Sequence record: MH533020.1
Direction: 5' to 3' (one strand)
DNA from: Acinetobacter phage ABPH49
DNA: 64,000 nt
The position numbers were made by a program, and so were the translations under genes. Shown in pieces: positions 2,645-55,019 of this stretch (position 1 is its first letter; each line of letters opens with the position of its first letter). The notes beneath the pieces are model-generated. The model was given only the letters and a program-made list of their open reading frames with translations, had not been told where the DNA came from and did no database searches.

Positions 2645-4017
2645 TGACCAAGTCAGTAACTGAGATCCTTAACGAGCTGCGTGCAACCTCGTCTAAGAAC
2701 GAAAAAGAGCGAATCATCCGTGAGAATGCTGATCATGACGGCCTGCGTGAAGCATTTCGTGTAGCTTACTCGAAAGAGTTGAACTTCTTTGTGCGTGGCG
2801 TGAAGAACACCTACCAGAACCCGGGCCTGCGCCCTCTTTCGGACAGCATCAACGATCTGGTAACGAACATCGCTGGCCGCCTGTACACCGGCGACGAAGC
2901 CAAGTCGTACATGCAGCAGCTGATCGGCTTGTGTGAAGAGCCTGATACGCTGGTGGCGATCATCAACCGCGATCTGGAGTGTGGTGTACAGACAACCATC
3001 ACCAACAAAGTGTGGAAGGACCTGATCACCGAGCCTCCGTACCAGAGCTACACGCTGTTCACCGAGAAGTTGCTGCGTAAGTTCAACTTCAAGGGCGCTT
3101 TCTCCGATGAGAAAATGGACGGTCTGTATGCAGACATCATGGTATGGCCTGATCAGGTTATCTATCGCTCACGATCTGGTAAAGAGCTGAACTTCCGTGC
3201 CCCACAGGCAGTGGAAGATGCGCTGATGTCGGCGGCCTGCACTCGAGGCCCATTCGTGGCACACGGTGAAGGTCTGGTTATCGATCCGACAGCACGTCAT
3301 GGTGTTATGGAACGTGCAGAGGGTAACGGCTATCTGAACCAAGATCCTGAAGACATCGACCGAAACCGGGTCCGACTTGTTGTCTGGGACATGGTTGACA
3401 TGGACGATTACATCGCCCGCAAGTCGAAAGTCGAATATTACATTCGTCGTGACAACACCAGCTTCTTGGTTGCAGAGGTGGATGTTCTTGAGCATTTCCA
3501 GATGGTTCGTGGTCGTAAGATCAACAGCCTGAAAGAGGCGATCGACCACTTCATCGAAATGCGACAGCAGAAGAAGGAAGGGACGGTACTCAAAGAAGCT
3601 GATATGTTGTGGGGTGACAACAAGACCAAGAAGGGTATCAAACTGAAGAATGAGTTTGACGTCGATCTGGAAGTTGTTGCGACGACACCTCACAAGAAGA
3701 AGGAAGGTTGGGTGGGCGCTCTGATCTGTCAGACACGTGATGGTCTGCTTGAGGTTGGTGCCGGTTCTGGATTGACAGATGCACTGCGTGGCAAGTCACC
3801 AGACTACTTCGTCGGCCAGATCATCACGATCAAGGCGAACGACATCACGAAATCTGAGACGAAAGAACTCCAGTCTCTGTTCCTGCCACGACTCAACTAC
3901 AAGTTTGTTGAGATCCGCCGGGACAAGAGCATCGCCAACAGTCTGGAAGAAGTTATCCAAGCTGCTGACTCACTGCTGGAACTGCTGCGTAAAATTGCGG
4001 AGGATGTGGATAAATGA
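2644..4017 (+). CDS. ATP-dependent DNA ligase (T4/T7 ligase family)
   Basis: 457 aa ORF; adenylation motif I K-M-D-G (SDEKMDGLYADI) and overall ligase-like layout; TAATG coupling to the upstream gene. Confidence 0.85.
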   Translation: MTKSVTEILNELRATSSKNEKERIIRENADHDGLREAFRVAYSKELNFFVRGVKNTYQNPGLRPLSDSINDLVTNIAGRLYTGDEAKSYMQQLIGLCEEPDTLVAIINRDLECGVQTTITNKVWKDLITEPPYQSYTLFTEKLLRKFNFKGAFSDEKMDGLYADIMVWPDQVIYRSRSGKELNFRAPQAVEDALMSAACTRGPFVAHGEGLVIDPTARHGVMERAEGNGYLNQDPEDIDRNRVRLVVWDMVDMDDYIARKSKVEYYIRRDNTSFLVAEVDVLEHFQMVRGRKINSLKEAIDHFIEMRQQKKEGTVLKEADMLWGDNKTKKGIKLKNEFDVDLEVVATTPHKKKEGWVGALICQTRDGLLEVGAGSGLTDALRGKSPDYFVGQIITIKANDITKSETKELQSLFLPRLNYKFVEIRRDKSIANSLEEVIQAADSLLELLRKIAEDVDK

Positions 4018-31826: not shown

Positions 31827-32021
31827 TTACTTCTTGGCTTTCTTCAATACCGGGGCCTTGAACGGGTGGCCCGGTGAAACGGTAGTTCCGTTGGTGAAGC
31901 AGTGACCCATTACCTTTTTGGACACGACCCAACCGTTCTTTGGGGTCTTTACCCACCAGTGCACGAACGGCGCGGACACCACCGCTGCCAGAAAGATCAG
32001 GAACAGAGAGTCATACAGCAT
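31827..32021 (-). CDS. small membrane protein
   Basis: internal ATG (MLYDSLFLIFLAAVV...) with RBS AAGGAGG; part of track ORF 31827..32066. Confidence 0.5.
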   Translation of the reverse strand: MLYDSLFLIFLAAVVSAPFVHWWVKTPKNGWVVSKKVMGHCFTNGTTVSPGHPFKAPVLKKAKK

Positions 32022-32259
32022 CGGGAACCTCCTTAGGTAACGGGCCAGAAAGGGCCTCCAATTCAAGGTCTTCTCCGAAAACCACCGAAGAGCTGAAGCT
32101 CAGGCCGGTATCATCAAGACACAGGTCTGTCCACAGGTTCATGACCTCTTTCTGGGCGATCCCCGCCGCATACTCGTAACTCTTGAACGGCCCGTAGGCC
32201 TTGAACGCCACCAGATCACCATTTGAACCAACAACCATCACGTTTGCTACGTATTCCAT
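32011..32259 (-). CDS. hypothetical protein
   Basis: ORF track 82 aa; RBS GGGGAG. Confidence 0.5.
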   Translation of the reverse strand: MEYVANVMVVGSNGDLVAFKAYGPFKSYEYAAGIAQKEVMNLWTDLCLDDTGLSFSSSVVFGEDLELEALSGPLPKEVPDAV

Positions 32260-32267
32260 AAACTCCC

Positions 32268-32537
32268 CTATTTCAGTTTCTTGAGGTTCTTCTCTTGAAC
32301 CCGCAGTGTTACCCAGCCACGGGACGTGCCAGTTTGGACCCTGACGGAGAACATTCTCTCCGTTGGATTCAACGGATGGGCATACGTCTCATACATCACG
32401 TAGCCGCGTTTACCGGCGTACTTGCCGGTTGTTGGAGTTACATCATCGTCTGACTTTATCGTGGCAGGAACGGGGGTTTCCCCGTACTTCACCCTCGCTG
32501 CCCCTCTGGCCGCATACCATTCTGAAAGGTCACTCAT
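32268..32537 (-). CDS. hypothetical protein
   Basis: ORF track 89 aa. Confidence 0.5.
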   Translation of the reverse strand: MSDLSEWYAARGAARVKYGETPVPATIKSDDDVTPTTGKYAGKRGYVMYETYAHPLNPTERMFSVRVQTGTSRGWVTLRVQEKNLKKLK

Positions 32538-32749
32538 TTCGCCTCCAGCAATGCCAGCCCTTTGCGGTGAATCAGGTCGCGAGCAGTGTACGGCTTACCT
32601 GTACCTTCCCACCCAAGTACGAGATGAGGATTAGCGCAGGTGAAGCAGAACTTATCATACTTCCCGCCGGAGTAGTCACGGCGACAACGAAGGCAGTGAC
32701 CTAAGTACCGGTCATCGTGCGGGTGATCCGCATTGCTGAATACTTTCAT
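32534..32749 (-). CDS. small Cys/His-rich protein
   Basis: internal ATG (MKVFSNADHPHDD...CLRC...CFTC) of track ORF 32534..32848. Confidence 0.45.
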   Translation of the reverse strand: MKVFSNADHPHDDRYLGHCLRCRRDYSGGKYDKFCFTCANPHLVLGWEGTGKPYTARDLIHRKGLALLEAK

Positions 32750-32883
32750 TATTTGAACTCCAAGTACCGAGGCTCTACGTTGCCAACCTCGATGTTGTTG
32801 ACGAGGATGTCGTAGTTCCCATTGTCCCGCTTCCTCAATATTTCGCATTCAAAGCGATAGTGTTTTGGAAGGTATACACTCAT
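32749..32883 (-). CDS. hypothetical small protein (44 aa)
   Basis: perfect RBS AAAGGAGG; TAATG coupling to the downstream gene; overlaps the 3' end of the 32849..33163 gene. Confidence 0.35.
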   Translation of the reverse strand: MSVYLPKHYRFECEILRKRDNGNYDILVNNIEVGNVEPRYLEFK

Positions 32884-33163
32884 GTTTTTCCTCCTTTAGT
32901 TTCTTCCTCCGGGCAATAGCCCTCGCGGCCTGAATGTCCTGATCGGACGGTGGAGGGCCATCATACCCTCCATGCGCCCAGTATGCAAGAGTCCGACCGC
33001 AAGATTTGCACTGGTGGGAATACTCACAGACTGTGTAGTCAAGCCGGTCGTGGACGACCGTCTCAACCTCTTCACTGGAGCAGACGAAACACTTCTTGGC
33101 CCCGCCATCCTCGTCCCAGAATTCACTGCGGAGCTTGTATGTTTCAGGCCGCACCGGCTTCAT
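32849..33163 (-). CDS. Cys-rich (Zn-binding) protein
   Basis: ORF track 104 aa; CFVC...C..C..C pattern. Confidence 0.5.
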   Translation of the reverse strand: MKPVRPETYKLRSEFWDEDGGAKKCFVCSSEEVETVVHDRLDYTVCEYSHQCKSCGRTLAYWAHGGYDGPPPSDQDIQAARAIARRKKLKEEKHECIPSKTLSL

Positions 33164-33512
33164 ACTCTTTCAGCAGGGCTATCACACCGGCCTTCAGAGG
33201 GTTATCAGCAATTGCAGAGTACCGTGGCACCTTCTCACCTTTAAACTCCGTGATGGCGTACCACAGCCCGTTCTGGAGCTTGATCTGGGTTACCCCGCCA
33301 TTCATCAGGAACCGGAAAGAGTCCCCCGCGTTGGAGCAGAAATCGTACCAGTGGTATTCGTCATTCTTTACCACACCAACGGAGCGATTGTCCCCGGCAT
33401 GTGGGTACCCGACAATTTTTGGTTCTTCCTGCCAGCCAGATTTTTCACGGATCATCTTCAGGAATTCCGCGTTCAGCTGGAAGGTTGTCATCTTGTCGTA
33501 ATTTTTCATCAC
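33144..33512 (-). CDS. hypothetical protein
   Basis: ORF track 122 aa. Confidence 0.5.
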   Translation of the reverse strand: MMKNYDKMTTFQLNAEFLKMIREKSGWQEEPKIVGYPHAGDNRSVGVVKNDEYHWYDFCSNAGDSFRFLMNGGVTQIKLQNGLWYAITEFKGEKVPRYSAIADNPLKAGVIALLKEYEAGAA

Positions 33513-33862
33513 AGTAGCCCTTTTGCCTTGTTGAGAACAGCGTTAACCCAGTCGCGATCGAAGCCCGGCATGGTTGGCAGAGGGGTGTCTTGAGGAACGG
33601 CGTCAATCCATTCCAGAGCCGCCTCCAGCGCCTCAACCATCTCGATGCTTACCGCCTTAGCATGTGAAGATCCAACGCGGATCAGTTTATCATCTTCCGA
33701 CGACCAAACCTCTACCGTATTTAACAGTTCGTCTTCCTCGTCGTCCGAAAATGCCGTGGAAGGGATCTCTTTGAATACGTGGGCATTTTCTTTCTTCTTT
33801 GTGTAGCCATAGCCCTTTTGTGCGTACCACCCGTGACTGGTGTCTCTGATCAGGTAACCCAT
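33509..33862 (-). CDS. hypothetical protein
   Basis: internal ATG (MGYLIRDTSHGW...) with RBS GGAGGA; within track ORF 33509..33886. Confidence 0.5.
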   Translation of the reverse strand: MGYLIRDTSHGWYAQKGYGYTKKKENAHVFKEIPSTAFSDDEEDELLNTVEVWSSEDDKLIRVGSSHAKAVSIEMVEALEAALEWIDAVPQDTPLPTMPGFDRDWVNAVLNKAKGLL

Positions 33863-34277
33863 TATAAATCCTCCAGTATTTCCCAAACCTCGGAACGGAA
33901 TTCCGGGTCGCAGTTCAACAGCATTTTTATCGTCGTGTAAAGCTCACCAGATGAGTCAGGGAACGGCATCAAGTGGTACCGGCGAGCATTGATCTCCGCG
34001 ATGTAAATTTCACGTTCTTCCTCAACAGCAGACGGACTCTCCGTCATCACGTACCCTGTCCCGCTGAACATGGTGCCCTTCGGTGCAGGGATGCCACGGG
34101 AGATTCGACGATAGAACGCCTTGATTTCCGCCACCGGGTACCCGAAGTAAACTCCGAGGCCACCCAGCGCAAAGCTTTGGCGTGGAGGTGTTTGAACTCC
34201 GGCAGAGGGATGTCGAATTCGTCACCGTCGTTAACCCGCTCGTTAAATTGCGGAAAATTTGGTCTTGTTTTGGTCAT
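33862..34277 (-). CDS. hypothetical protein, possibly one gene split by a frameshift near 34135-34150
   Basis: track ORFs 34047..34277 (good RBS) and 33862..34134 (no ATG or RBS of its own) overlap head-to-tail in different frames. Confidence 0.3.
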
Positions 34278-34281
34278 TATT

Positions 34282-34485
34282 TTACCCCTTTACGTTGCCG
34301 AAGATGTTGTAAGCTTGCGATCTGTCGATCTCCCCGTGAACCCAGTGGTCCTCTTTCTCGTGGCACACCTTGCATATCCGGTACACCGTCGTAACGGGAC
34401 CATCAACCATGACGTTGTGGTCAAGGTGGGAGATCACCCAGTCGTGTTTGCACGACCTCGCCTTCTTCATGAAAAATCCGAACAT
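34282..34485 (-). CDS. small Zn-binding protein
   Basis: ORF track 67 aa; CKH...C..CH pattern. Confidence 0.5.
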   Translation of the reverse strand: MFGFFMKKARSCKHDWVISHLDHNVMVDGPVTTVYRICKVCHEKEDHWVHGEIDRSQAYNIFGNVKG

Positions 34486-34487
34486 GG

Positions 34488-34736
34488 TTACTCCTCGCTG
34501 ACCCAGTATTTGTAAAACATAGAGTTAACAGCGACGCTTGACTGCTCGTAGAAGAAGTCCGCACCGGTACCTGTGTAGAATGTGGCGAGGTTTGGATGGT
34601 ACGAAGTTACCAAATTGAACAGCGCCTGACCGTAGCGGAGGTCAGGGTTCTTGATAGCCTCGTCATGCGCTCGAGAGGCAAGTTCCACGGCAACGAGTAA
34701 CGGAATCCGGTTGATTTCTTTATCCAGCTTTGACAT
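34488..34736 (-). CDS. hypothetical protein
   Basis: ORF track 82 aa. Confidence 0.5.
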   Translation of the reverse strand: MSKLDKEINRIPLLVAVELASRAHDEAIKNPDLRYGQALFNLVTSYHPNLATFYTGTGADFFYEQSSVAVNSMFYKYWVSEE

Positions 34737-34886
34737 ATCCTCTCCTAATGTGAGTTCTGTTTCGATATGGGGATTCTCTCACCTGAAGACATCCATGTCA
34801 ACAGAAAAGATCACAATTTTGCGAGGAGGAGAGTCAAGCCGACCGTGGCACCAATCCCAACGCAAAGAATCAACTCAATAATCTCG

Positions 34887-35522
34887 TTACTCATTGATTT
34901 CCTCAATCAGTTGGTTCAGTAAGTCTCTGAGTTTTATGATGTTTTTAACACCCATGATGGAAACCTCCTGATTTTTATTATCATCTCGCCTCAGGCTGAT
35001 GGTGCTGGCATTCCCGTTCGAGGTCGCCGTTACAATGGCATCATCGATCTTTCCGCATACCCTCATCGCAGGCCAAGCTACCGTAACCTCCTTTTCGAAG
35101 AAGTCTCGTACCAGCCTAACCACCACCGGTCCGTACATCTCCGCAACCTTGATGATGCGTTCCACACGGTGATATGCTACATCACGCTCACCAATAAACC
35201 GTGTAGTCAAGCATCGAGCTACCTGCACCAAGTGGTTATCGTTATCGGCGCGGAAGCTCCAGTAGCCCTCAGGGTAGGATGACGGCATCATCCGGGTAAG
35301 CAGGCGCTCCAACTGCTCGTCCACGATCTCAACATCTGGATGGATCATCATAGCCGAGAAGTGAAAAGACATCATGTTCCAGTCTACAGCTCCCGGCCCG
35401 CCGGGGAGGGCATCTGAATACATCAGGTAGCCGGACTCGCGAGCTTGACGAAGGTCCATTGTGGACATAAGCTCGTACTCTTTGCGTGGCACAACCACGG
35501 CCACTGATTGCGGCATACTCAT
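34887..35522 (-). CDS. hypothetical protein
   Basis: track ORF 34887..35531; ATGA-coupled start preferred. Confidence 0.55.
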   Translation of the reverse strand: MSMPQSVAVVVPRKEYELMSTMDLRQARESGYLMYSDALPGGPGAVDWNMMSFHFSAMMIHPDVEIVDEQLERLLTRMMPSSYPEGYWSFRADNDNHLVQVARCLTTRFIGERDVAYHRVERIIKVAEMYGPVVVRLVRDFFEKEVTVAWPAMRVCGKIDDAIVTATSNGNASTISLRRDDNKNQEVSIMGVKNIIKLRDLLNQLIEEINE

Positions 35523-36160
35523 TTGAACCACCCCTTTATTTTATCCACCACCGTCTGTCGTGGAGGTGCTGGCTTCAGCGTGAAGTTCTCTGGAACAACA
35601 ACCAGATCTTGGGTCAAGAGGTCGTGAGCCTCCTTCATCATCTTATCTAAGTTGTTGAATTTTCTATTCATTTTTGAAACTCTTGCAAACTTCTCGGTGA
35701 GTTCACCCACAGCCAGACTGTATTCACCCTCCAAGAATATCACATGTTCCATTAGGCCGGTTACTTTGTAGCCCCAATGACTGTGAGGATCAGGGCGAAT
35801 TCCAGTTTTCTGGCATACGGCATCTAGCTCATTGTAGGCCGCTGTCAGTGCGTTCCAGATTCCCTCTACACGCTCTGAAGAGCCTGACAATCGGTCCTTG
35901 TAGGGAGCCGTATCAAACTCTTCCAGCCGGGGGTAGATTCTCTTCGGAGGAGGGGCACTTACGGCCTGAGTTTCCAGAGCTTTCTTCGTTCCGATCGTCA
36001 GACTCAGCTGATCGATATCTGACACCCGATCAAGGATGTACCGGCGCAGGCCTACAACCCCGTCAGGACAAGACAGAATCTCTTTATACCCCCGCGAGGA
36101 GTTTACCTCGATCTTCGTCGTGTGTTTGGACAAGAAGTCCAGAATTTCTGTATCGGTCAC
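35519..36160 (-). CDS. hypothetical protein
   Basis: ORF track 213 aa. Confidence 0.55.
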   Translation of the reverse strand: MTDTEILDFLSKHTTKIEVNSSRGYKEILSCPDGVVGLRRYILDRVSDIDQLSLTIGTKKALETQAVSAPPPKRIYPRLEEFDTAPYKDRLSGSSERVEGIWNALTAAYNELDAVCQKTGIRPDPHSHWGYKVTGLMEHVIFLEGEYSLAVGELTEKFARVSKMNRKFNNLDKMMKEAHDLLTQDLVVVPENFTLKPAPPRQTVVDKIKGWFK

Positions 36161-36170
36161 TTATTTATCC

Positions 36171-36542
36171 TCACCATTTTACGACTATTTGCACCGGGTA
36201 TTGTATAGAACCGCCCCGCTCGTATGCCTGCCGGTAGCCGAAATGCGCCTCGAATCCAAGATCTTTAAGGTTGGATATAAGGTTTTTGGCTCGCGTCAGA
36301 TAAGGCGATACATCGCGGTCTATGCCGTCTTCGTCCGGGTCAGCTACTGCTCCGGCAGTGCAGATGATGCATGAGTAATGTCCCTTGCTTGCTGCGGCGT
36401 GAATAGCATTTTTAACGACCTCTGGTACAAGCTTATCCTCCGCTTCTTTGGACTTACGACGGACATTCTCCGCATTAAATGCCTCAAGATCCACACCCTC
36501 TGGGTATGTTGTATCGTCTGTATGGATCATTATTACCTCCAA
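36171..36542 (-). CDS. hypothetical protein
   Basis: ORF track 123 aa. Confidence 0.5.
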   Translation of the reverse strand: MEVIMIHTDDTTYPEGVDLEAFNAENVRRKSKEAEDKLVPEVVKNAIHAAASKGHYSCIICTAGAVADPDEDGIDRDVSPYLTRAKNLISNLKDLGFEAHFGYRQAYERGGSIQYPVQIVVKW

Positions 36543-36808
36543 CGGATGTGATCATCGCAGCTGTACTCGTACTGAGTCTGCAATGTTGTTTGTGGGACCA
36601 TGACCTTGCCGATGGTCAACCATGTTGTGACGGATTTGGTTTCTGACTGACCGGTCTTGACGCAATGTTGGGCATCCATCTCGACAGAGTCTTTGTACAT
36701 GGCGATCGGCAGTACAATGAACAGGAAGGCCACCAGCCAGACAGCAATGCCGATAAAGATGCCATCTTCAAACTTCATTGCGTCCCAAAGATCTTCAAAT
36801 ATCCACAT
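36533..36808 (-). CDS. membrane protein
   Basis: ORF track 91 aa; TM segment IFIGIAVWLVAFLFIVLPIAM. Confidence 0.5.
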   Translation of the reverse strand: MWIFEDLWDAMKFEDGIFIGIAVWLVAFLFIVLPIAMYKDSVEMDAQHCVKTGQSETKSVTTWLTIGKVMVPQTTLQTQYEYSCDDHIRWR

Positions 36809-36810
36809 GA

Positions 36811-37146
36811 TTAGCTCCCATTGTCTTTAAGTCCTTGCAGCCCGGGAAGGGCCAGTCTACGGTTAAGCTCCTGTATTTCGCCCTCATACTGCTCGAAGAG
36901 GTCTTCGTACATTCTCATTGCCGGAGAGTCTACACCATGTTGGTCGGCAATGCCACCGCTTTCGTATTGTTTTCTTCGGATCTCCATTTGGGCATTGAGC
37001 AAGGTTCCGACGTTGGCGTCCCACATCGCCCGGGTGTAAATTATGTTGTTGTATTTCCTCACCTTTTCTTTCTCTGCCTTCAAAAGCAGGATTACCAGAA
37101 CAACGACAAGGGTGATGATGATCAACGCTCCAATTAATTCAGCCAT
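36811..37146 (-). CDS. membrane protein
   Basis: ORF track 111 aa; N-terminal TM LIGALIIITLVVVLVILLL. Confidence 0.5.
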   Translation of the reverse strand: MAELIGALIIITLVVVLVILLLKAEKEKVRKYNNIIYTRAMWDANVGTLLNAQMEIRRKQYESGGIADQHGVDSPAMRMYEDLFEQYEGEIQELNRRLALPGLQGLKDNGS

Positions 37147-37321
37147 GAAACCCCCACTTCACCGGCATGATGCTGACATGACGATGACTGCGTTTTGGGA
37201 TGGTTTTCAGGTATTCTTCCCTAGCCATCTTAGCCTCTTCCTCGGTAGAATGAGCCGATACCGGCATATCTCGACAGCGGAACGATGTAGAGTCTCTCAT
37301 CACTACGTATATGTTTTTCAT
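37139..37321 (-). CDS. small protein, paralog of the adjacent 37318..37500 gene
   Basis: internal ATG (MKNIYVVMRD...EEEAKMAREEYLK...VKWGF); the shared pattern with the neighbour implies tandem duplication. Confidence 0.45.
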   Translation of the reverse strand: MKNIYVVMRDSTSFRCRDMPVSAHSTEEEAKMAREEYLKTIPKRSHRHVSIMPVKWGFHG

Positions 37322-37500
37322 CCGATCCCCCACTTCACTTCTCGAACATGGACCTTGATGTTTCTCCATTTATCGAGGTCTTTCAGGTACTCTTCCTTTG
37401 CAGTTTCGGCACCTTCCGGCGTCTTGTGGGCAGACAGAAGCTGATCTCCGTACAGGCCAGTCAACGACGTCAAAACAACCACGTGTATGTTTTTACTCAT
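37318..37500 (-). CDS. small protein, paralog of 37139..37321
   Basis: MSKNIHVVVL...AETAKEEYLK...VKWGI; perfect RBS GTAAGGAGAAAAC. Confidence 0.5.
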   Translation of the reverse strand: MSKNIHVVVLTSLTGLYGDQLLSAHKTPEGAETAKEEYLKDLDKWRNIKVHVREVKWGIG

Positions 37501-37509
37501 GTTTTCTCC

Positions 37510-37620
37510 TTACAGTGTCGACAGCAATTTTTCAAACCCAACCACCCCGGCAATGATGAGGAGGACAACTACCCATGCACCCATGAAGCGGAGGATGGTT
37601 GGTGGACTATCGTTCATCAT
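37510..37620 (-). CDS. small TM protein (36-37 aa)
   Basis: RBS AGGAGAT; hydrophobic MGAWVVVLLIIAGVVGF; below the track cutoff. Confidence 0.4.
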   Translation of the reverse strand: MMNDSPPTILRFMGAWVVVLLIIAGVVGFEKLLSTL

Positions 37621-37874
37621 CTTTTATCTCCTGTCCACTCGCCTTCGTGGTGTTTCACGGCAAACGTGTAATCCGGTCCGCCGAGATAACTCTCCCAGTG
37701 CAGGTCGGCGCATCCTGCCGCCCATTCTTGCTCAACAAGGTTGTACCCGCAAAGGGCTACAATTGCCAGCTTACCGGCGGCGATGGCCCCTGCCTCGGTA
37801 TCCGCGCCGCAGATGGTCCTAACCCAGCCACCGGCACAGCAGAAGTCTTTACAGCGTACTTGGACAACCCACAT
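37617..37874 (-). CDS. Cys-rich protein
   Basis: ORF track 85 aa; RBS TGGAGGA. Confidence 0.5.
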   Translation of the reverse strand: MWVVQVRCKDFCCAGGWVRTICGADTEAGAIAAGKLAIVALCGYNLVEQEWAAGCADLHWESYLGGPDYTFAVKHHEGEWTGDKR

Positions 37875-38056
37875 TATCGATCCTCCAGAGAAATGAGAAT
37901 GATCTTTCCTACTTTCAGGAGGTACTGGAGATGAAACTGCTCATTTATGTACCCTTCGTCGTAGGCATAGGCCTCATCAGGATCTCGAGTAGTCCCTTTA
38001 TCAGGCGAAAGGTAATACTCTCCAGTAGCTACATGAAAAATAAGGAACTTTTTCAT
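37874..38056 (-). CDS. small protein, paralog of 38833..39045
   Basis: internal ATG (MKKFLIFHVATGEYYLSPDK...YAYDE) with RBS AAAAGGAGAAGG. Confidence 0.45.
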   Translation of the reverse strand: MKKFLIFHVATGEYYLSPDKGTTRDPDEAYAYDEGYINEQFHLQYLLKVGKIILISLEDR

Positions 38057-38352
38057 TATCGACCTTCTCCTTTTACGAGATGCTTCCAAGAGATGCGGAT
38101 GCTTACGATCTCTGTGAGGTGGTAATCATCACAGCTGTACGTCACTTCATACCCCAGAGACTTCAGCAGCTGACCTGCGGTCAACATTTCGTGGTTCAGA
38201 CTCGCCCCTACAATTTTGCGAGTCAGTTTGGTCTGGGTTTGTGTTGCCGGGACGTTGCGGATATGCTCCCATACTGCTTCTGGAAGAATAACTTCCTTTT
38301 GCAGCGCCTCTGTTGTCCGCTTCGCCATCTCTTCTGCTGTTGGTAAATTCAT
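38056..38352 (-). CDS. hypothetical protein
   Basis: internal ATG (MNLPTAEEMAKR...) with RBS AAAGGGGGAT. Confidence 0.45.
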   Translation of the reverse strand: MNLPTAEEMAKRTTEALQKEVILPEAVWEHIRNVPATQTQTKLTRKIVGASLNHEMLTAGQLLKSLGYEVTYSCDDYHLTEIVSIRISWKHLVKGEGR

Positions 38353-38377
38353 TTTATCCCCCTTTGTTTTCAACATG

Positions 38378-38674
38378 TTAGTAGAATGAGTCTTCGTCTC
38401 TTTGCCAGAGATACTCCCAGCGCTCCTCCGCGTCTCGCATCCGAGACTCAAACCACTGAAGTTCGCGCTTCAGCTTGTCGTACTCCTCCTTTTTCTCCCA
38501 AGAGGCGTACTCGGTGCACTCGCTCTCGAAGTTACCTGAATCCGTGAATGAGGTTTGGTCCTCATTCCCACAGGAACACCGGTAGGATACACGAAGCATC
38601 CCACCGCTGTCAACAACTTCGCTGCCTTTTATTACTTGGTGGTTGCTCGAGATCCGGTCGCAGTTGTTACACAT
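38378..38674 (-). CDS. Zn-ribbon protein
   Basis: MCNNC...C.CG pattern; start uncertain (track ORF extends to 38770 with a GTG). Confidence 0.4.
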   Translation of the reverse strand: MCNNCDRISSNHQVIKGSEVVDSGGMLRVSYRCSCGNEDQTSFTDSGNFESECTEYASWEKKEEYDKLKRELQWFESRMRDAEERWEYLWQRDEDSFY

Positions 38675-38832
38675 AAGCCGGGTTCTCGTCCCAAATCTTG
38701 CCTTTGTTCTTGGATGTTTTCTCACGCCCCCTCCAACTGTTGTGGTGTCCAAAATTGGTTGCAGTGGCACACCAATATTGCCTAAAGAGGCAAACCAAGA
38801 CCCGCCTGAAGAGGCAGGCCAGTTTCCTCAGG

Positions 38833-39045
38833 TCACGCCACGGCCTGACCCTCTCCCCTCGGATTCAGCAGCACCAACCGGCATTCGCCGTACTTCAGAT
38901 TTTCCATGATGCTCCACGAACCGAGGATGGCACGCTCATCGTAGACGTGTGCCGAAACCCGTGATGGGGTAATCCCGCAAAACGGTGCAAGGTAATACTG
39001 GTCCTTTTCCACATCCTTGATCAAAAAGAGTTTACTGGTTTTCAT
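38833..39045 (-). CDS. small protein, paralog of 37874..38056
   Basis: MKTSKLFLIKDVEKDQYYLAPF...HVYDE; RBS AAAGGAGGG. Confidence 0.45.
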   Translation of the reverse strand: MKTSKLFLIKDVEKDQYYLAPFCGITPSRVSAHVYDERAILGSWSIMENLKYGECRLVLLNPRGEGQAVA

Positions 39046-39171
39046 TTGTCGCCCTCCTTTCCTGTACCCCATACCCATGAGCGGGTCACGGTACTTTGTC
39101 CAACTGTTAAGCCCAAACAGGCTCTTTGGTGTCACATCATAAAGCCCGTGTTCCCGCAGGATTGTCCCCTC

Positions 39172-39501
39172 TCAGTCAGACTCTTCATTCTGGGATACCT
39201 CCTTTTCCGGTATACCCCCGGTTTTAGAGGGGGTGGGGTCCAAAATATCACCACCAGAAATATCCCGTGGGGCTGTCTGGTCCCGTGGTGACTCGTCACG
39301 GGCGTGGTATCGCCAAATCCACAAGCTCCCGTGGGGTAAGCGCGTAGCAGGCTCACGAACTTCACCAAGGGCCTCGTCGATCGCATCGCGAAGTCTCAGC
39401 AGCTGCTCTTTCCCAACAAGGGTGACGACCTGTGTATTGCCACTCTTGAAGGTCTGGCAGACCACCAGTGATTCTCTGTCTGTTGCCAACTCAATGCTCA
39501 T
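39172..39501 (-). CDS. hypothetical protein
   Basis: ORF track 109 aa; RBS GAGGAC. Confidence 0.5.
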   Translation of the reverse strand: MSIELATDRESLVVCQTFKSGNTQVVTLVGKEQLLRLRDAIDEALGEVREPATRLPHGSLWIWRYHARDESPRDQTAPRDISGGDILDPTPSKTGGIPEKEVSQNEESD

Positions 39502-40324
39502 ATTTTGTCCTCATGTCTGCTCATTTCTTTCCACCACTATACCCAACCTAAAGAGGTCCGTCAACTGTTATCTTTCCTTGCCAAAATATCCTGCCCTTTG
39601 GAGGCGGACCGGAGGGAGGCCTCTGGGTCTTGGTGTTTCGGGGGAAATTACACTATTTGGATAGTGGTGCTTGACGGAACCTCTGGGCAGAACGGGGGTG
39701 GGGCGGATCTTTGCCAAATATCTGGGCAAAAATCAAAAAGGGTACCAGTTCCTCGCCGTTCTCAAGTTACAGACATTATAACATCGGCGTGCCAGAATAC
39801 AAGCTTTTTCTTTGCCTTTTTGTTGCAGGCATTCACCAACATTTGGGGTCAGATACAGCACTTTTTGCCAAGAAACCCGGGTTTACCTGTGCTTCACCCA
39901 ATTTAACATAAAACACGTTATACGCACCAACAAGGGACCGGCGGAGCGGGCCTGTTGCAATTGAGTCTCATTACCAACAAGGCAGGCCAGCTAAGGCGCG
40001 GCCAGTGATCAGCCACCTCCATTTGAGAACGCTTCTCATTCAACTTTTGCAATCTGAATCGCAATAATAATTATTCTCATTTGCATTTCGATCCGCATTC
40101 CGGGCACCAACTAAATTTAAAATAAAAATATTTGACAAGTAGCGAATACTGTGTTTTGCTAGGCAGCTTTGCCCTGCTGTTGGTCATCTTGTGAGCAAAT
40201 ACAGCCGCTATCCTGTGGAACCAGACCTCCGGGGCCTGTTGGTCTGCCTCTTCAGTCATCCCCTGATGCATTTCTATGCTAAGAAAACAAGATATTTATT
40301 CACTTAATTTGATAACAAAAAGCT

Positions 40325-40520
40325 TGACATACTGTAATTTGTCTCTATTAAAGACAAAGGAAAATAGAGACAAGCGCCACCGCCGAAGGCGATGATCGCG
40401 GGGGAAGCAACACAGCCTAGCGCGTGATAGCGCTGGGTGTGGGGGTTACTCTATTTTCCTTTGTCGCTCGCTACGCTCGCGCCACCCTGATCGCGGGGGG
40501 AAAACTGCGACATCTGGTAA
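40325..40520 (+). ncRNA. candidate structured RNA or origin-like element: promoter (TTGACA-16-TATTAA) followed by a long imperfect inverted repeat (GACAAAGGAAAATAGAG ... CTCTATTTTCCTTTGTC) enclosing a GATCGCGGGGG direct repeat
   Basis: 17-bp arms about 70 nt apart; no ORF explains the region. Confidence 0.3.
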
Positions 40521-40857
40521 AGGTCAACAGCCGAAAAGCTGTGATCGTCTAAAACAGCCTGTGCGCTGTTTTAAGGCGTTTTCATGCTAAGGTGATAAAT
40601 GGTATGGCTTACAGCCCGAAAGCCTCGCAGTGGTCCGCCTGTGAAGCCGTTTAGATGATAATGGTTCTCAACAAGTTGGTGGTAGGATTTTTAGGGTGAT
40701 TGGTGGGTTTTGGGGGTTGTATTGATCATTGGTTGGTGATATTCTGTTAGATCGGTGTTGGTTGTGGGTGATACCATTCCGCCAGCGGCTAAGGCCGGTT
40801 TCCAACTGGTGGCAATGCCTCGAGGCTCGCCGCTGTTCGCCCTGGGTAATCTTGTGA

Positions 40858-40890
40858 CGAAAACAAGAAACCCGGCGCTGTGGCCGGGCT
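40858..40890 (-). terminator. rho-independent terminator (CCCGGCCACAGCGCCGGG + TTTCTTGTTTTCG on the - strand)
   Basis: GC hairpin plus T-rich tail a short distance downstream of the stop of the 40968..41318 gene. Confidence 0.55.
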
Positions 40891-40967
40891 TGTGGTGGGT
40901 GTTACTGTGGGTTACTGCTGGGTGTGAAACAACCATTTAGCCGCTTCATTGCGGGCCGCGACCTCTT

Positions 40968-41318
40968 CTAGAACTCTCCCCAGCTGATCCGGCTGATATG
41001 GCGGTTTTCCATTGCTGCCTGTACTGACAGATCAAAGGGGGAGAAACCATAGCGCACTATGCGGATCTCTTCAAAACCGGTGTAATACTCATTGCCGAAC
41101 TTCTTGGCTGAGAAGACCGCCTCGATCGTGTACTCCCGGTTGCCGTCGTTCACCTCTTCAATGAGGACAGTCTCACGCATTGCCCAATTCTGACAATCGC
41201 GGATAACTTGGCAAGCTTCAGGGCGGAGGGTGCCAAAATTCACGGCGTGAGCCAGCGCAGCAGGGCCAAAGGTGCGGGCAATAGCGATAACATCGGCGCG
41301 GGTTTCGATAGTGAACAT
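40968..41318 (-). CDS. hypothetical protein
   Basis: internal ATG (MFTIETRAD...) with RBS AAAAAGGAATCAC; promoter TTTACA-17-TACTAT and 5'-UTR hairpin GGGAGGCAATACCGCCTCCC upstream. Confidence 0.5.
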   Translation of the reverse strand: MFTIETRADVIAIARTFGPAALAHAVNFGTLRPEACQVIRDCQNWAMRETVLIEEVNDGNREYTIEAVFSAKKFGNEYYTGFEEIRIVRYGFSPFDLSVQAAMENRHISRISWGEF

Positions 41319-41340
41319 GGTGTGATTCCTTTTTGTGGGT

Positions 41341-41395
41341 GGAGGCGGTATTGCCTCCCGATGTGTTAATAGTAGGTCATCTGGCGCAGGATGTA
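41341..41395 (-). promoter_or_regulatory. promoter (TTTACA-17-TACTAT) plus 5'-UTR hairpin GGGAGGC-AATAC-CGCCTCCC
   Basis: the same promoter-hairpin-RBS layout as the repeated cassettes further right. Confidence 0.45.
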
Positions 41396-41415
41396 AAGCG
41401 GATAAGTGAAATAAA

Positions 41416-41445
41416 TGCAAAAAACCCCGGCACTACGGCCGGAGT
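41416..41445 (-). terminator. rho-independent terminator (CCGGCCGTAGTGCCGGGG + TTTTTTG on the - strand)
   Basis: hairpin plus T6 after the stop of the 41433..41705 gene. Confidence 0.55.
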
Positions 41446-41705
41446 TCGTTCGTGATTTCGTTGGCTGCGGCGATCTGCCGTAGGCGTGCCAATCTGTCAA
41501 GGTAGGTGCTATAAGCCTGCATTAGGGCGGCTGGCTCTTCCCGGTCATACTGCAAAGACACCCGGCGATCGTCTTCCATGCCAACGATCCAGAAATAGGC
41601 GTGATCGCTTTCTTCCACCGCAACCAGTTGTAACCAGTTAGGGGACATCCCGTCATCGTCAACAGGGGTTACGATACACTCTTCAAGCTTGATTGATTTG
41701 GTCAT
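41433..41705 (-). CDS. hypothetical protein
   Basis: ORF track 90 aa. Confidence 0.5.
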   Translation of the reverse strand: MTKSIKLEECIVTPVDDDGMSPNWLQLVAVEESDHAYFWIVGMEDDRRVSLQYDREEPAALMQAYSTYLDRLARLRQIAAANEITNELRP

Positions 41706-42019
41706 GATAAAGCCTCATTGGTTGGAAAATTTACTACCTGACACCGAACTTTATCAGGATAGGACCTTCCTGTTATAAAGTCAATAAAAATCGCATCTGT
41801 AAATTCAATGCTTACTGAATCATCACACCAGTTAACTATGTAATTTCTGTTTTCGAGTTGTTTGCGGGTGATGGGTTTTGCACCTGCGGCTTTCATAGAA
41901 GACCCAAGGATTTTATGGACTATCCACACATGCGCCGATCCCCGGTAAGATTTTTCTCCCTCGCTCAACAAATGGTCAAGGGCCTTTTCTGGACTGGTAA
42001 AGTTATAAGACATGTGCAT
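41702..42019 (-). CDS. hypothetical protein
   Basis: internal ATG (MHMSYNFTSPEK...) of track ORF 41702..42145. Confidence 0.45.
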   Translation of the reverse strand: MHMSYNFTSPEKALDHLLSEGEKSYRGSAHVWIVHKILGSSMKAAGAKPITRKQLENRNYIVNWCDDSVSIEFTDAIFIDFITGRSYPDKVRCQVVNFPTNEALS

Positions 42020-42059
42020 GATTAGGGTCTCATATAGGCCCCTTTCGGGGCCGGGTTGG

Positions 42060-42326
42060 TTACTTGTACAGTTTGACAAAGTCGCGGAAAATGTCGTTCC
42101 AGTCAGGACCGTTTTGCAGCTGGTAAGGCTTGCCGTGGTGGTCATAGTTCATGGCGCTAACTTCACCAGTGGCAAAGAAGCCGCTGTCATATGCTGCTTT
42201 CTCGGCCTTGCGGATCACGGCGTTGATCCGGTTTCCGTTCGGGTTGCCGTTGCTCTCAGCGTTCAATTGCTTGGCGGTAACTTCCAGATTTTTCAGGGCT
42301 GTTCTGATGAATTTAACTTTGTTCAC
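42060..42326 (-). CDS. hypothetical protein
   Basis: ORF track 88 aa. Confidence 0.5.
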   Translation of the reverse strand: MNKVKFIRTALKNLEVTAKQLNAESNGNPNGNRINAVIRKAEKAAYDSGFFATGEVSAMNYDHHGKPYQLQNGPDWNDIFRDFVKLYK

Positions 42327-42423
42327 TTTACATTACCTTTCGGGGTGGCTGGCGGTGTGCCTTGCCTCTGGAAACAATAATAGGACCTTTCGGCCCTGAA
42401 GTCTTTAGCAAAAAGTGCTATTT

Positions 42424-42582
42424 TTATCGTTTACCGCTTGCACGGTTATTCAGCCAATCCCGAACCATGCGGATCGCCTCATAATTGTAACCTTCAGCCT
42501 GCATTCTGGCCTCTAACTGCATTTTGGTTAGGTTGAGCCTACGGATCCGCCGGGCGTACTGATAAGCCTGATCTTTTGTCAT
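42424..42582 (-). CDS. hypothetical small protein (52 aa)
   Basis: ATGA coupling; below the track cutoff. Confidence 0.35.
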   Translation of the reverse strand: MTKDQAYQYARRIRRLNLTKMQLEARMQAEGYNYEAIRMVRDWLNNRASGKR

Positions 42583-54685: not shown

Positions 54686-55019
54686 ATTGTGTTGACAACC
54701 CAGCGCAAGCTGGGTTATTCTGTTGTCAGCAGGAAACGCCACCCCACGGCGAAAAGGCGGGGCTAACGCAGCCGGGCACGGCGCGGAAGGTTAATCGCCG
54801 GTAGCTCGTCCAAAATTTCTTTTGTAAAGATTGAGAAAAAGCTTGATCGTGGGTGTGAGTGTGCTATTCTTATCACATGGCACCGGATGACGGGGAAGAC
54901 AAACACCACCCCTGCCTGTCATTCTGCAAACGAGAATGATTATCATTCAACATCCTAAATGAGAACCATTCTCATCCCGACCGGGAGAGATCTAGACCGA
55001 AAAACTGATTTACAAAAAC

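Follow-up and report, generated by a model that had tools for sequence, protein, structure and literature searches.

The window analysed here is a 64,000-nucleotide stretch of Acinetobacter phage ABPH49 (MH533020.1), assigned by its sequence to the Vequintavirinae (rV5-like) myoviruses, with the Serratia phages Kashira (92% identity) and ChuuTotoro (78%) as nearest relatives. Between the genes at 39172–39501 and 40968–41420 (the latter matching phrog_10173) lies a block of 1.4 kb, the features of which are collected in Table 1. No credible ORF was found in 39502–40967: the ORFs of the gap had no PHROG or Pfam match, and the homologous stretch is unannotated and without CDS in the records of both Kashira and ChuuTotoro, which bears out the claim of an earlier note that the gap holds no convincing ORF. 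In the relatives inspected, the motif of the folded element described below sits within a stretch of 1.2–2.3 kb with zero CDS or tiny ORF calls only. Conservation of the non-coding block equals or exceeds that of the flanking genes (80–98% against 70–78% identity).

A scan for tRNA and tmRNA gave no match. The search with Rfam covariance models that had been proposed earlier was performed with Rfam 15 and yielded zero matches at the gathering threshold in the whole window, sub-threshold chance matches only in the gap region, and none at E ≤ 1 in five relatives. A weak sub-threshold match to the PrrF sRNA (39975–40091) was rejected as being produced by AT-rich palindromes and not by an sRNA. 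Strings specific to the window had no exact match in scans of IMG/VR, and literature searches returned no relevant description of the gap and no Vequintavirinae transcriptome. The most likely identity of the gene-free block is that of a control region at the genome end of an rV5-like phage of the Vequintavirinae.

Table 1. Features in and around the gene-free block (window coordinates)
Feature	Position	Strand	Remark
Sigma-70-like promoter TTGACG-17-TATAGT of gene 39172–39501	39536–39564	-	sequence kept in ChuuTotoro and Kashira
GCCAAAATATCC box, first of two	39580–39591		read from sequence; candidate terminase recognition repeat
Predicted direct terminal repeat, 483 bp	39673–40155		single copy in assembly; boundary-motif homology
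Second GCCAAATATCT box	39713–39723		41 nt inside left boundary; same offset in relatives
Most conserved block within repeat (..TTTAACATAAAACACGTTATACGCACC..)	39850–39938		common to Av-05, Hena1 and KPP-1
Palindrome TGAGAAC-G-CTTCTCA	40024–40038		Fur-box-like 7-1-7 candidate operator, inside repeat
Second palindrome copy TAATAATTATTCTCA	40065–40079
TATGCTAAG motif	40275–40283	+	in 94%-conserved block upstream of element; candidate -10
Sigma-70-like promoter TTGACA-16-TATTAA	40324–40351	+	abuts left arm; window phage only
P1 5' arm GACAAAGGAAAATAGAG	40353–40369	+	perfect inverted repeat
Element interior	40370–40448	+	two hairpins, inner TGATCGCGGGGG copy, then G-rich run and TTA
Interior hairpin CGCC-GAA-GGCG	40381–40391	+
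Interior hairpin CCTAGCGC-GTGATA-GCGCTGGG	40416–40437	+
P1 3' arm CTCTATTTTCCTTTGTC	40449–40465	+	perfect inverted repeat
Invariant 23-mer GTCGCTCGCTACGCTCGCGCCAC	40463–40485	+	overlaps last 3 nt of arm; unique in window
P5-like hairpin CTCGCG / CGCGGG, loop CCACCCTGAT	40476–40499	+	includes outer TGATCGCGGGGG copy; helix 5 in relatives
Hairpin AAAACAGC-CTGTGC-GCTGTTTT, flanked by A-run and T-run	40551–40572		read from sequence; unflagged by terminator scan
Second CATGCTAAG motif	40583–40591	+
Palindrome TGATAAT-G-GTTCTCA	40656–40670		12/14 Fur 7-1-7 consensus matches
C-rich, G-poor tract (GT-rich on + strand)	40676–40790	-	candidate Rho-loading (rut) trailer
Intrinsic terminator after gene 40968–41420	40868–40891	-	terminator scan

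Boundaries of the predicted terminal repeat

Positions 39673–40155 are predicted to be a direct terminal repeat (DTR) of ~483 bp that was collapsed in the assembly, and the physical ends of the phage DNA are placed accordingly by homology. The left end reads CTT/GACGGAAC at 39673 (slash, predicted cut), and the right end TTGACA (40132–40137)-N13-TGTGTT/TTGCTA with 40155 as last base. These motifs are identical to those bounding the annotated 519-bp DTR in the record of Hena1 and the 514-bp DTR of KPP-1, which was mapped to 116316–116829 by doubled read coverage and PhageTerm and is packaged in a T7-like manner (PMC9862379). Hena1 and KPP-1 were used as references with mapped termini and KP12 as a third by record start, its record opening at the base equivalent to the left boundary of the window, exactly at GACGGACA. 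Homology between Hena1 and the window is collinear both within the repeat and beyond it. Applied as a rule, the boundary motifs reproduce the published KPP-1 coordinates and located both boundaries in 10 of 15 genomes scanned, with a spacing of 483–516 bp (483 bp in the window, 485–516 bp in the other genomes). Repeats of 459 bp have been reported for Vequintavirus Gotham (PMC7471380). The predicted repeat has the shared boundary sequences, a length within ~460–520 bp and a location in the large gene-free gap.

Two to four AAAATATC boxes surround the left cut site in relatives, and KPP-1, Hena1 and Av-05 carry GGATCTTT(A/T)CAAAATATC at the offset of the second box of the window; these boxes and the TTGACA-N18 motif at the two cut sites are likely terminase signals. 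Within the repeat, 39900–39949 is 98% identical to ChuuTotoro. The promoter of gene 39172–39501 sits outside the repeat and is directed away from it. Of the functions suggested earlier for the gap, a packaging or origin element is supported in its packaging direction, the left two thirds of the gap matching the DTR and the cut-site motifs of relatives; no support was found for a recombination hotspot. An apparent terminal duplication within the element of SalP219 was discarded as a 127-bp assembly overlap and not a terminal repeat.

The palindromes of Table 1 belong to a degenerate pattern with five matches in the window against 0.19 expected (26-fold enrichment). The Fur 7-1-7 consensus is TGATAAT-N-ATTATCA, and the copy at 40024–40038 matches it at 10 of 14 positions; boxes homologous to 40656–40670 are present in Av-05, KPP-1 and PVP-SE1. 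It is possible that the palindromes are Fur-like boxes, and equally possible that they serve a phage regulator.

The folded element and its surroundings

The element (40353–40499) starts ~200 nt beyond the predicted right boundary of the DTR. Its two 17-nt arms (P1) are 100% complementary and occur nowhere else in the window; the arms had been noted before with a spacing of about 70 nt, which is corrected here to 79 nt. Likewise, two copies of GATCGCGGGGG had been described as enclosed by the arms: both exist, but only 40393–40404 lies inside, and the other (40488–40499) is outside, 23 nt downstream of the right arm. Folding of the inverted-repeat region, as proposed earlier, gave a z-score of -5.2, and no shuffle folded equally well. 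The two interior hairpins are retained in ChuuTotoro despite substitutions and indels.

Copies of the element were found in 17 phage genomes from GenBank and in 8 metagenome contigs, in every case within the corresponding gene-free gap, and among these the arms form 11 distinct sequence variants, all 11 perfectly complementary. In a consensus fold of 10 relatives, 99% of cells were paired. The search for compensatory changes, proposed earlier for the stem, found strong covariation in the interior helices, with 19 doubly changed pairs against a shuffle mean of 7.6 (0 of 500 shuffles reached 19) and 1–5 in slid controls, so that the suggestion of a structured element is strongly supported, the stem and the inner helices covarying across genera. 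Read on the + strand, the alignment has G.U at three positions (12 cells) against a single C.A cell; as the C.A cell would be the wobble if the opposite strand were read, the excess of G.U favours the + strand, weakly at about five independent events. The loops on the + strand read GNNA. A + strand RNA is the most likely form of the fold. No record inspected carries an annotation of the element, and no Rfam family matched it; it is conserved across the subfamily and apparently has not been described before.

The most conserved part is the 23-mer. A 24-nt match to PVP-SE1, Mydo, KB57, a Cronobacter phage and others takes in the last 22 nt of the 23-mer without a change, and the 20-nt core has at most two changes across 16 genomes, save for two Henunavirus phages with 4–5. 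A scan of IMG/VR with a degenerate tail motif returned Av-05 as sole match. When a host target was sought, the 23-mer had no match on either strand of 5,426 complete E. coli genomes.

As a separate observation, high-GC bacteria carry exact copies of the 23-mer beside hairpins, within intergenic repeats that are dispersed. The chromosomal surroundings of these copies are ordinary, and none matches an Rfam family; their recurrence could reflect a shared, widely conserved binding partner.

The TTGACA-16-TATTAA promoter reported before the left arm is present, beginning at 40324 and not at 40325. Its predicted start lies 5–7 nt inside the arm, which would cut off the first 5–7 nt of the latter. 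Calling the repeat promoter-driven does not hold as a general property, the promoter being missing even in Kashira and ChuuTotoro; a sigma-70 promoter lies ≤160 nt upstream of the left arm, or overlaps it, in 4 of 16 genomes and abuts the arm in the window only. In relatives a related (T/C)ATGCTCA motif follows TTGACA, and TATGCTAAG is possibly the -10 of the transcription unit of the element. YATGCTAAG was rejected as a phage-wide promoter motif, with just three copies in 64 kb. The hairpin at 40551–40572 resembles a weak bidirectional terminator and could mark the end of the element transcript.

The GT-rich, CA-rich tract singled out in the earlier note is extreme in composition: 40675–40774 is the most G+T-rich 100-nt stretch in 64 kb (0.83; runner-up 0.71), 40676–40760 contains three C, and the tract has a GC skew of +0.74. 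It is separate from the inverted-repeat unit, with which it had been grouped; the tract is common to the window and ChuuTotoro only, and Kashira lacks 40640–42545. Since it is confined to these two phages, its role would be local at most. Its minus-strand RNA (40760–40676, 33 C and 3 G in 85 nt, just past the intrinsic terminator) is C-rich and G-poor over ~80 nt downstream of a gene, as rut sites are, and by composition it is a candidate that looks like the rut-like Rho-loading trailer of a separate minus-strand gene cassette.

Readings as RNA and as DNA

We propose that the genome-end region consists of a ~483-bp DTR and a conserved folded + strand element, most likely a non-coding RNA, with the GT tract as an unrelated Rho trailer, and give this reading a probability of roughly 0.6. 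The virion DNA would have GACGGAAC as its first bases and ..CTGTGTT as its last, both ends arising from site-specific, T7-type cutting of concatemers. On the + strand, the element would fold into the 17-bp closing helix, the two interior hairpins, the 23-mer and the further hairpin, and would function as a non-coding RNA domain, with transcription running inward from the end of the genome. RNase III could plausibly process it at the perfect closing helix, and a conserved factor of phage or host could plausibly bind the 23-mer. Rho loaded on the GT-tract trailer may stop read-through into the terminus. A wider role, namely that Vequintavirinae and possibly other short-repeat myoviruses carry a terminus-proximal structured RNA, so far unrecognised, which is closed by a perfect helix of the RNase III type, has the 23-mer as an invariant tail and serves in trans in packaging or at the genome end (pRNA-like), or as an immediate-early decoy for a host factor, appears improbable on present evidence.

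The RNA reading has a serious rival in a packaging or replication signal at the level of DNA. In this case the element would be a cis signal for genome-end processing or packaging, with terminase on the 23-mer or with a strand, left single by concatemer processing, that snaps back through the arms much like the hairpin intermediate described for T7; we consider this signal possible without being probable. Side and orientation of the element are fixed, 189–403 nt from the right boundary of the DTR wherever both were found, as expected of such a signal; however, the element lies away from the cut site, whereas a primer hairpin would need to abut it. The 23 nt that are invariant across genera are unpaired and could equally be the DNA site of a protein, and no conserved promoter precedes the arm, but the interior helices covary like a folded molecule and unlike protein sites. 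The arms are strictly Watson-Crick: P1 lacks G.U pairs throughout the 11 variants, while other helices do carry G.U, which is unusual for a helix selected solely as RNA and fits either a constraint on both strands or the copying of one arm from the other. Against this stand the G.U pairs and GNNA loops, which favour one strand. Copies of the 5' half of the arm (GACACAAT or GACACTAT) recur upstream in an iteron-like manner in PVP-SE1, 24-2-1 and FENT2, and a passage of PMC4281155, citing Chung & Hinkle 1990, describes a TR-containing hairpin in T7 infection. With arm-to-arm loops of 73–217 nt, however, the arms would be unable to extrude from duplex DNA and would require a single strand.

A transcription-primed origin beside the left DTR, in which an inward transcript with hairpins and G-runs forms an R-loop that primes DNA synthesis, is decidedly unlikely. 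Comparable origins are the promoter-associated ones near T7 ends, ColE1 RNA II and T4 oriF/oriG. Rightward promoter-like sites are found both before and after the element, the window has the G-runs CGCGGGGG, GTGTGGGGG and CGCGGGGGG, and relatives have an AT-rich variable insert within P3 in addition to the iteron-like repeats; the long-form relatives, however, lack the G-runs, and no origin has been mapped in Vequintavirinae. On the circular map, genes converge on the gap region, as they usually do at a terminus and not at an origin, and the cumulative GC skew of the window turns at ~32 kb, at the coding-strand switch and away from the gap.

The element resembles a retron msr/msd RNA in that a long perfect stem, here the 17-nt arms in the place of the a1/a2 inverted repeat, closes a structured interior with hairpins and varies in sequence by lineage while its complementarity is kept. 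This is a resemblance only, and a retron is disfavoured as very improbable: neither flanking gene has a reverse-transcriptase domain, the annotated neighbours in relatives are all small hypothetical proteins, there is no Rfam match, and the element is linked in position to the genome terminus. An inverted repeat formed by chance, or an unannotated gene for a small protein, for which overlapping small ORFs (e.g. 40424–40552, 42 aa) and tiny ORFs called here by some annotators in relatives might be adduced, is refuted by the covariation, with arms and 23-mer conserved across genera, indels that are not multiples of three and break the frames, no PHROG or Pfam match, and no shuffle that folds as well.

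A known ncRNA is carried by the rV5-like phage PhiTE (PMC3475682). A PhiTE-type pseudo-ToxI (type III antitoxin mimic) was rejected as an identity for the element; in the PhiTE-like phage CB7 the ToxI-like sequence lies beside tRNA-Tyr, in a different region, and no ToxI-like 36-nt tandem repeats were seen in the gap.

Relation to known systems

Isolates of rV5, PVP-SE1 and related Vequintavirinae are widely obtained for use in therapy and biocontrol, and several published genomes were opened arbitrarily, with the largest gene-free block left blank. The boundary motifs offer a rule for placing the physical genome ends from sequence, which reproduced the one testable published coordinate set. 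Few non-coding features found in the subfamily are as well conserved as the hairpin element with its 23-mer, for which no function has been described. If the element is an RNA, it would represent a new phage RNA family at a genome end; as a DNA signal, it would be a candidate packaging or replication site of use in engineering these phages, for instance for packaging-based transduction or genome rebooting.

With phi29 pRNA, the element shares the setting of a structured RNA gene beside the genome end of a virulent phage. The RNA is predicted here, there is no similarity in sequence or structure and no Rfam match in window or relatives, where Rfam presumably includes pRNA, and phi29 has a terminal protein and no terminal repeat, whereas a DTR is predicted for the window phage. 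T5 has a repeat- and palindrome-rich non-coding region beside its terminal repeat, with an injection stop signal. The likeness to T5 consists of a kilobase-scale gene-free block at the repeat boundary with dense direct and inverted repeats that is conserved in relatives; the T5 repeat, however, contains genes and is ~10 kb long, the two regions have no similarity in sequence, and we know of no two-step DNA entry in Vequintavirinae.

The concatemer junction of the T7 group is similar in its short repeat, site-specific ends and non-coding flanks with promoters and short repeated boxes, and a hairpin from an inverted repeat has been linked to duplication of its terminal repeat (see also PMC4281155). 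In contrast to that group, the window phage is a myovirus dependent on host RNA polymerase, has no T7-polymerase pause site, and carries the element ~200–400 nt inside the left unique region and not at the junction. The DTRs of the Vequintavirinae KPP-1, Hena1 and Gotham agree with the predicted repeat in subfamily, gene-free gap, the boundaries ..T/GACGGA.. and TTGACA-N18/T.., and similar length; the KPP-1 paper and the Hena1 record are confined to the coordinates of the repeat, with no reference to boundary motifs or hairpin element, and the repeat of the window is a predicted one.

Gene content and predicted genome end

What the earlier note had observed is real, and the most fitting reading of the gap (the gene-free stretch) is a phage genome-end region with a subfamily-wide folded element, apparently undescribed. 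Reading of 39300–41200 and an ORF listing placed it between two minus-strand genes, 39172–39501 and 40968–41420, the latter a match to phrog_10173 (function unknown). The absence of a convincing ORF from 39501–40968 held: ORFs within the gap gave no PHROG or Pfam match, a scan of it found no tRNA or tmRNA gene, and no Rfam family matched the region. Two Vequintavirinae phages of Serratia match the region, Kashira (92% identity) and ChuuTotoro (78%); in both, the counterpart stretch carries no annotation. The non-coding block shared by window and ChuuTotoro is 80–98% identical over many 50-nt bins and the flanking genes ~70–78%, a sign of purifying selection acting on the non-coding sequence. 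Escherichia coli phage Av-05 has its own 1.9-kb gap, sharing short collinear modules with the window. Convergent gene blocks immediately border the gap on either side in Av-05, PVP-SE1, KPP-1 and others; in the window phage a minus-strand small-gene block (34887–39501) separates the plus-strand block from the terminus gap, and coding strand and GC skew flip from plus to minus near 32–35 kb (~32000–34900).

Direct terminal repeats of 519 bp are annotated in Hena1, with the element just inside one; in KPP-1, whose packaging is T7-like, doubled coverage and PhageTerm placed a 514-bp repeat at 116316–116829 (PMC9862379), and another Vequintavirus has 459-bp repeats (PMC7471380). The mapped repeats of Hena1 and KPP-1 start and end alike (..TA/GACGGACA.. 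and ..TTGACA-N13-NGTGTT/TAGCA.., slash at the boundary), and the KP12 record begins exactly with GACGGACA and ends in ..GGTGCTA. A search with the boundary motifs recovered the published KPP-1 coordinates; in 10 of the 15 genomes scanned it located both boundaries, at distances of 483–516 bp. Window and Hena1 are collinear outside the repeat (39545–39591) and inside it (39898–39929, 40012–40081). The identity of the region and its conserved cut-site motifs are regarded as demonstrated; judged by these motifs, the left part of the gap is the predicted terminal repeat, and ABPH49 virion DNA would start at 39673 and end at 40155. Where both boundaries are present, the element lies on the constant side, 189–403 nt past the right one.

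In every genome inspected, boxes of the form AAAATATC were seen, by reading the sequences, to either side of the left boundary; GCCAAA(A)TATC / AAAATATC boxes, with 2–4 copies around that boundary in each genus inspected, are candidates for terminase recognition repeats. The record ends of SalP219 (PP595732; L017 / L018) overlap by 127 bp within the hairpin element, which was rejected as a physical terminal repeat and looks like an uncollapsed assembly overlap. The window has five copies of a 15-bp palindrome, TGAKAAY-N-RTTMTCA (0.19 expected), which recurs in homologous gaps of relatives; its sequence resembles a Fur 7-1-7 box, which would account for a weak PrrF match in the gap.

The GT-rich tract is indeed unusual, with G+T of 0.83 in 40675–40774 (the highest value in 64 kb) and only 3 C in 40676–40760. 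It directly follows the minus-strand terminator, and minus-strand RNA from it would be C-rich and nearly without G, the composition of a Rho-loading site. Kashira, the nearest relative, lacks 40640–42545, a segment comprising the tract together with the gene cassette on its right side, which behaves as an insertion/deletion cassette beside the terminus element; this 1.9-kb segment also holds the terminator and minus-strand genes to ~42.5 kb. Because the tract travels with the cassette and is pronounced in window and ChuuTotoro only, it is judged not to be part of the terminus element.

Features of the gap and related sites (window coordinates unless a sequence label is given)
Feature	Position	Strand	Details
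Predicted terminal repeat	39673–40155		483 bp; boundary-motif search
GCCAAA(A)TATC / AAAATATC boxes	39580–39591, 39713–39723; L020 1400–1570; Hena1 composite 2370–2545
Promoter TTGACG-17-TATAGT	39564–39536	-	serves gene 39172–39501
Promoter TTGACA-16-TATTAA	40324–40351
Inverted-repeat arms (P1)	40353–40369 / 40449–40465		17 nt, 100% complementary, 79 nt apart; repeat finder
Repeat TGATCGCGGGGG	40393–40404; 40488–40499		inside arms; 23 nt beyond right arm
Intrinsic terminator	40891–40868	-	after gene 40968–41420
TGAKAAY-N-RTTMTCA	40024–40038, 40065–40079, 40656–40670		in gap
TGAKAAY-N-RTTMTCA	54931–54945, 54960–54974		29 nt apart; second gene-poor patch near 54.9 kb
Non-phage 23-mer copies	L024, L029, L031, L032, L037, L038/L044, L041; also L025–L028, L030, L033

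A conserved folded element

The earlier note had described 17-bp inverted arms ~70 nt apart, enclosing two repeat copies and preceded by a promoter at 40325. Promoter and perfectly complementary arms were located; the measured spacing is wider, and only one TGATCGCGGGGG copy is enclosed, the second lying past the right arm. The arm sequence is present in the window at these two sites only. The predicted fold of 40353–40505 has -71.3 kcal/mol and z = -5.2 on the plus strand (z = -4.6 on the minus strand).

When the right arm and downstream tail (TGTCGCTCGCTACGCTCGCGCCAC) were used as BLAST query, a 24-nt match at 100% identity was obtained in, among others, PVP-SE1, SSE121, KB57, Mydo and Cronobacter, Klebsiella and Proteus phages, nearly all matches falling in unannotated DNA. 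The gap was retrieved from 17 GenBank phage genomes, and the architecture was also present in 8 metagenome contigs. One layout runs throughout: left arm (16–22 nt), structured interior (73–217 nt), junction (T/C/A)TA and right arm running into the conserved tail, after which the repeat present inside the element recurs. Mismatches or wobble pairs occur in none of the 11 distinct arm sequences; those of Av-05 differ in sequence (GACACAATAACGCAGTAG / CTACTGCGTTATTGTGTC) yet are again perfectly complementary.

The RNAalifold consensus of ten 'long-form' relatives comprises five main helices: P1 (the arms), P2 (CGATC...GATCG with GNNA-type loops), P3 (GTGTTATCGTGGC / GCCACGATAAC), P4 and P5 (tail paired with the outer repeat). 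By pair counting in these ten, 99% of alignment cells are paired and both sides have changed in 19 of 59 pairs (shuffle mean 7.6, 0/500 shuffles reaching 19; slid controls 1–5). Read on the plus strand, three positions (12 cells) show G.U pairs, and one C.A cell would be a wobble of the other strand. The interior is shorter in window, Kashira, ChuuTotoro and A7_1; between window and ChuuTotoro both short-form hairpins have been maintained through substitutions and indels (e.g. CGCC-GAA-GGCG vs CCCC-GGA-GGGG). No Rfam family matched either form, in window or relatives. This covariation establishes a folded element under selection, and its closing helix is the inverted repeat noticed earlier.

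Tail positions 40470 and 40476 co-vary: window, Kashira, PVP-SE1 and the Mydo group have G...C, whereas ChuuTotoro, A7_1 and the Av-05 group have C...G; since ChuuTotoro is closely related to the window, this paired change seems to have occurred on more than one occasion. In Av-05-like phages (L003 3360–3375 / 3423–3438; L004 and L005 likewise) the right arm can also pair perfectly (16 bp) with an inner left-arm copy, so that two long helices exclude each other. Further direct copies of the 5' half of the arm lie upstream in PVP-SE1, 24-2-1 and FENT2.

Possible mode of action and the 23-mer

The proposal of a structured non-coding RNA stands as regards structure; that the element acts as RNA is given a probability of about 0.5. 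Its multi-helix junction architecture and wobble pairs argue for RNA, as does a hairpin with a T-run, or P5 then a T-run, after the element, followed by another rightward promoter-like site. A fold on the plus strand is hinted at by the G.U asymmetry and GNNA loops (~five independent events). The alternative, a DNA-level packaging or replication signal, is judged somewhat less likely, with a remainder left undecided. Several points count against RNA: only the window carries the consensus promoter abutting the left arm, a promoter whose predicted start would remove part of the arm, wobble pairs never occur in P1, the most conserved part is the unpaired 23-mer of the tail, and a Vequintavirinae transcriptome was sought in the literature and not found. 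A perfect 17–22 bp helix is, for its part, the right size for RNase III, which would explain the full-pairing requirement in an RNA.

The exact 23-mer with three variable positions allowed (GTCGCTC[GC]CT[AC]CG[GC]TCGCGCCAC) was also found outside these phages, in unrelated metagenome contigs and assemblies of high-GC bacteria, often with a C-rich run before and a CCTCCCC...GGGGAGG hairpin after it; one copy is directly adjoined by an 11-bp hairpin placed exactly like P1, and in Nocardioides (L028) two copies are spaced 192 nt apart. Both contexts checked were chromosomal, and no Rfam family matched at the bacterial copies. The rough chance expectation is 0.1–1 for the genome collection. These copies may belong to a family of dispersed repeats that resembles the 23-mer by coincidence.

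Comparison with known systems

Retron and pseudo-ToxI readings of the element were tested and rejected. ToxI-like antitoxin repeats (type III toxin-antitoxin) occur in ~200 phage records of many genera, mostly Klebsiella phages (also L021 3001–3064), with no copy within the studied region. Short terminal repeats are already known in Vequintavirinae; the boundary rule and the hairpin element are absent from the records and papers examined. As functional parallels three systems come nearest, none of them a relative in sequence or structure: the concatemer junction of T7 and its hairpin intermediate (PMC4281155), phi29 pRNA, where the likeness is that an RNA gene sits at a genome end, and the block rich in repeats next to the terminal repeat of T5.
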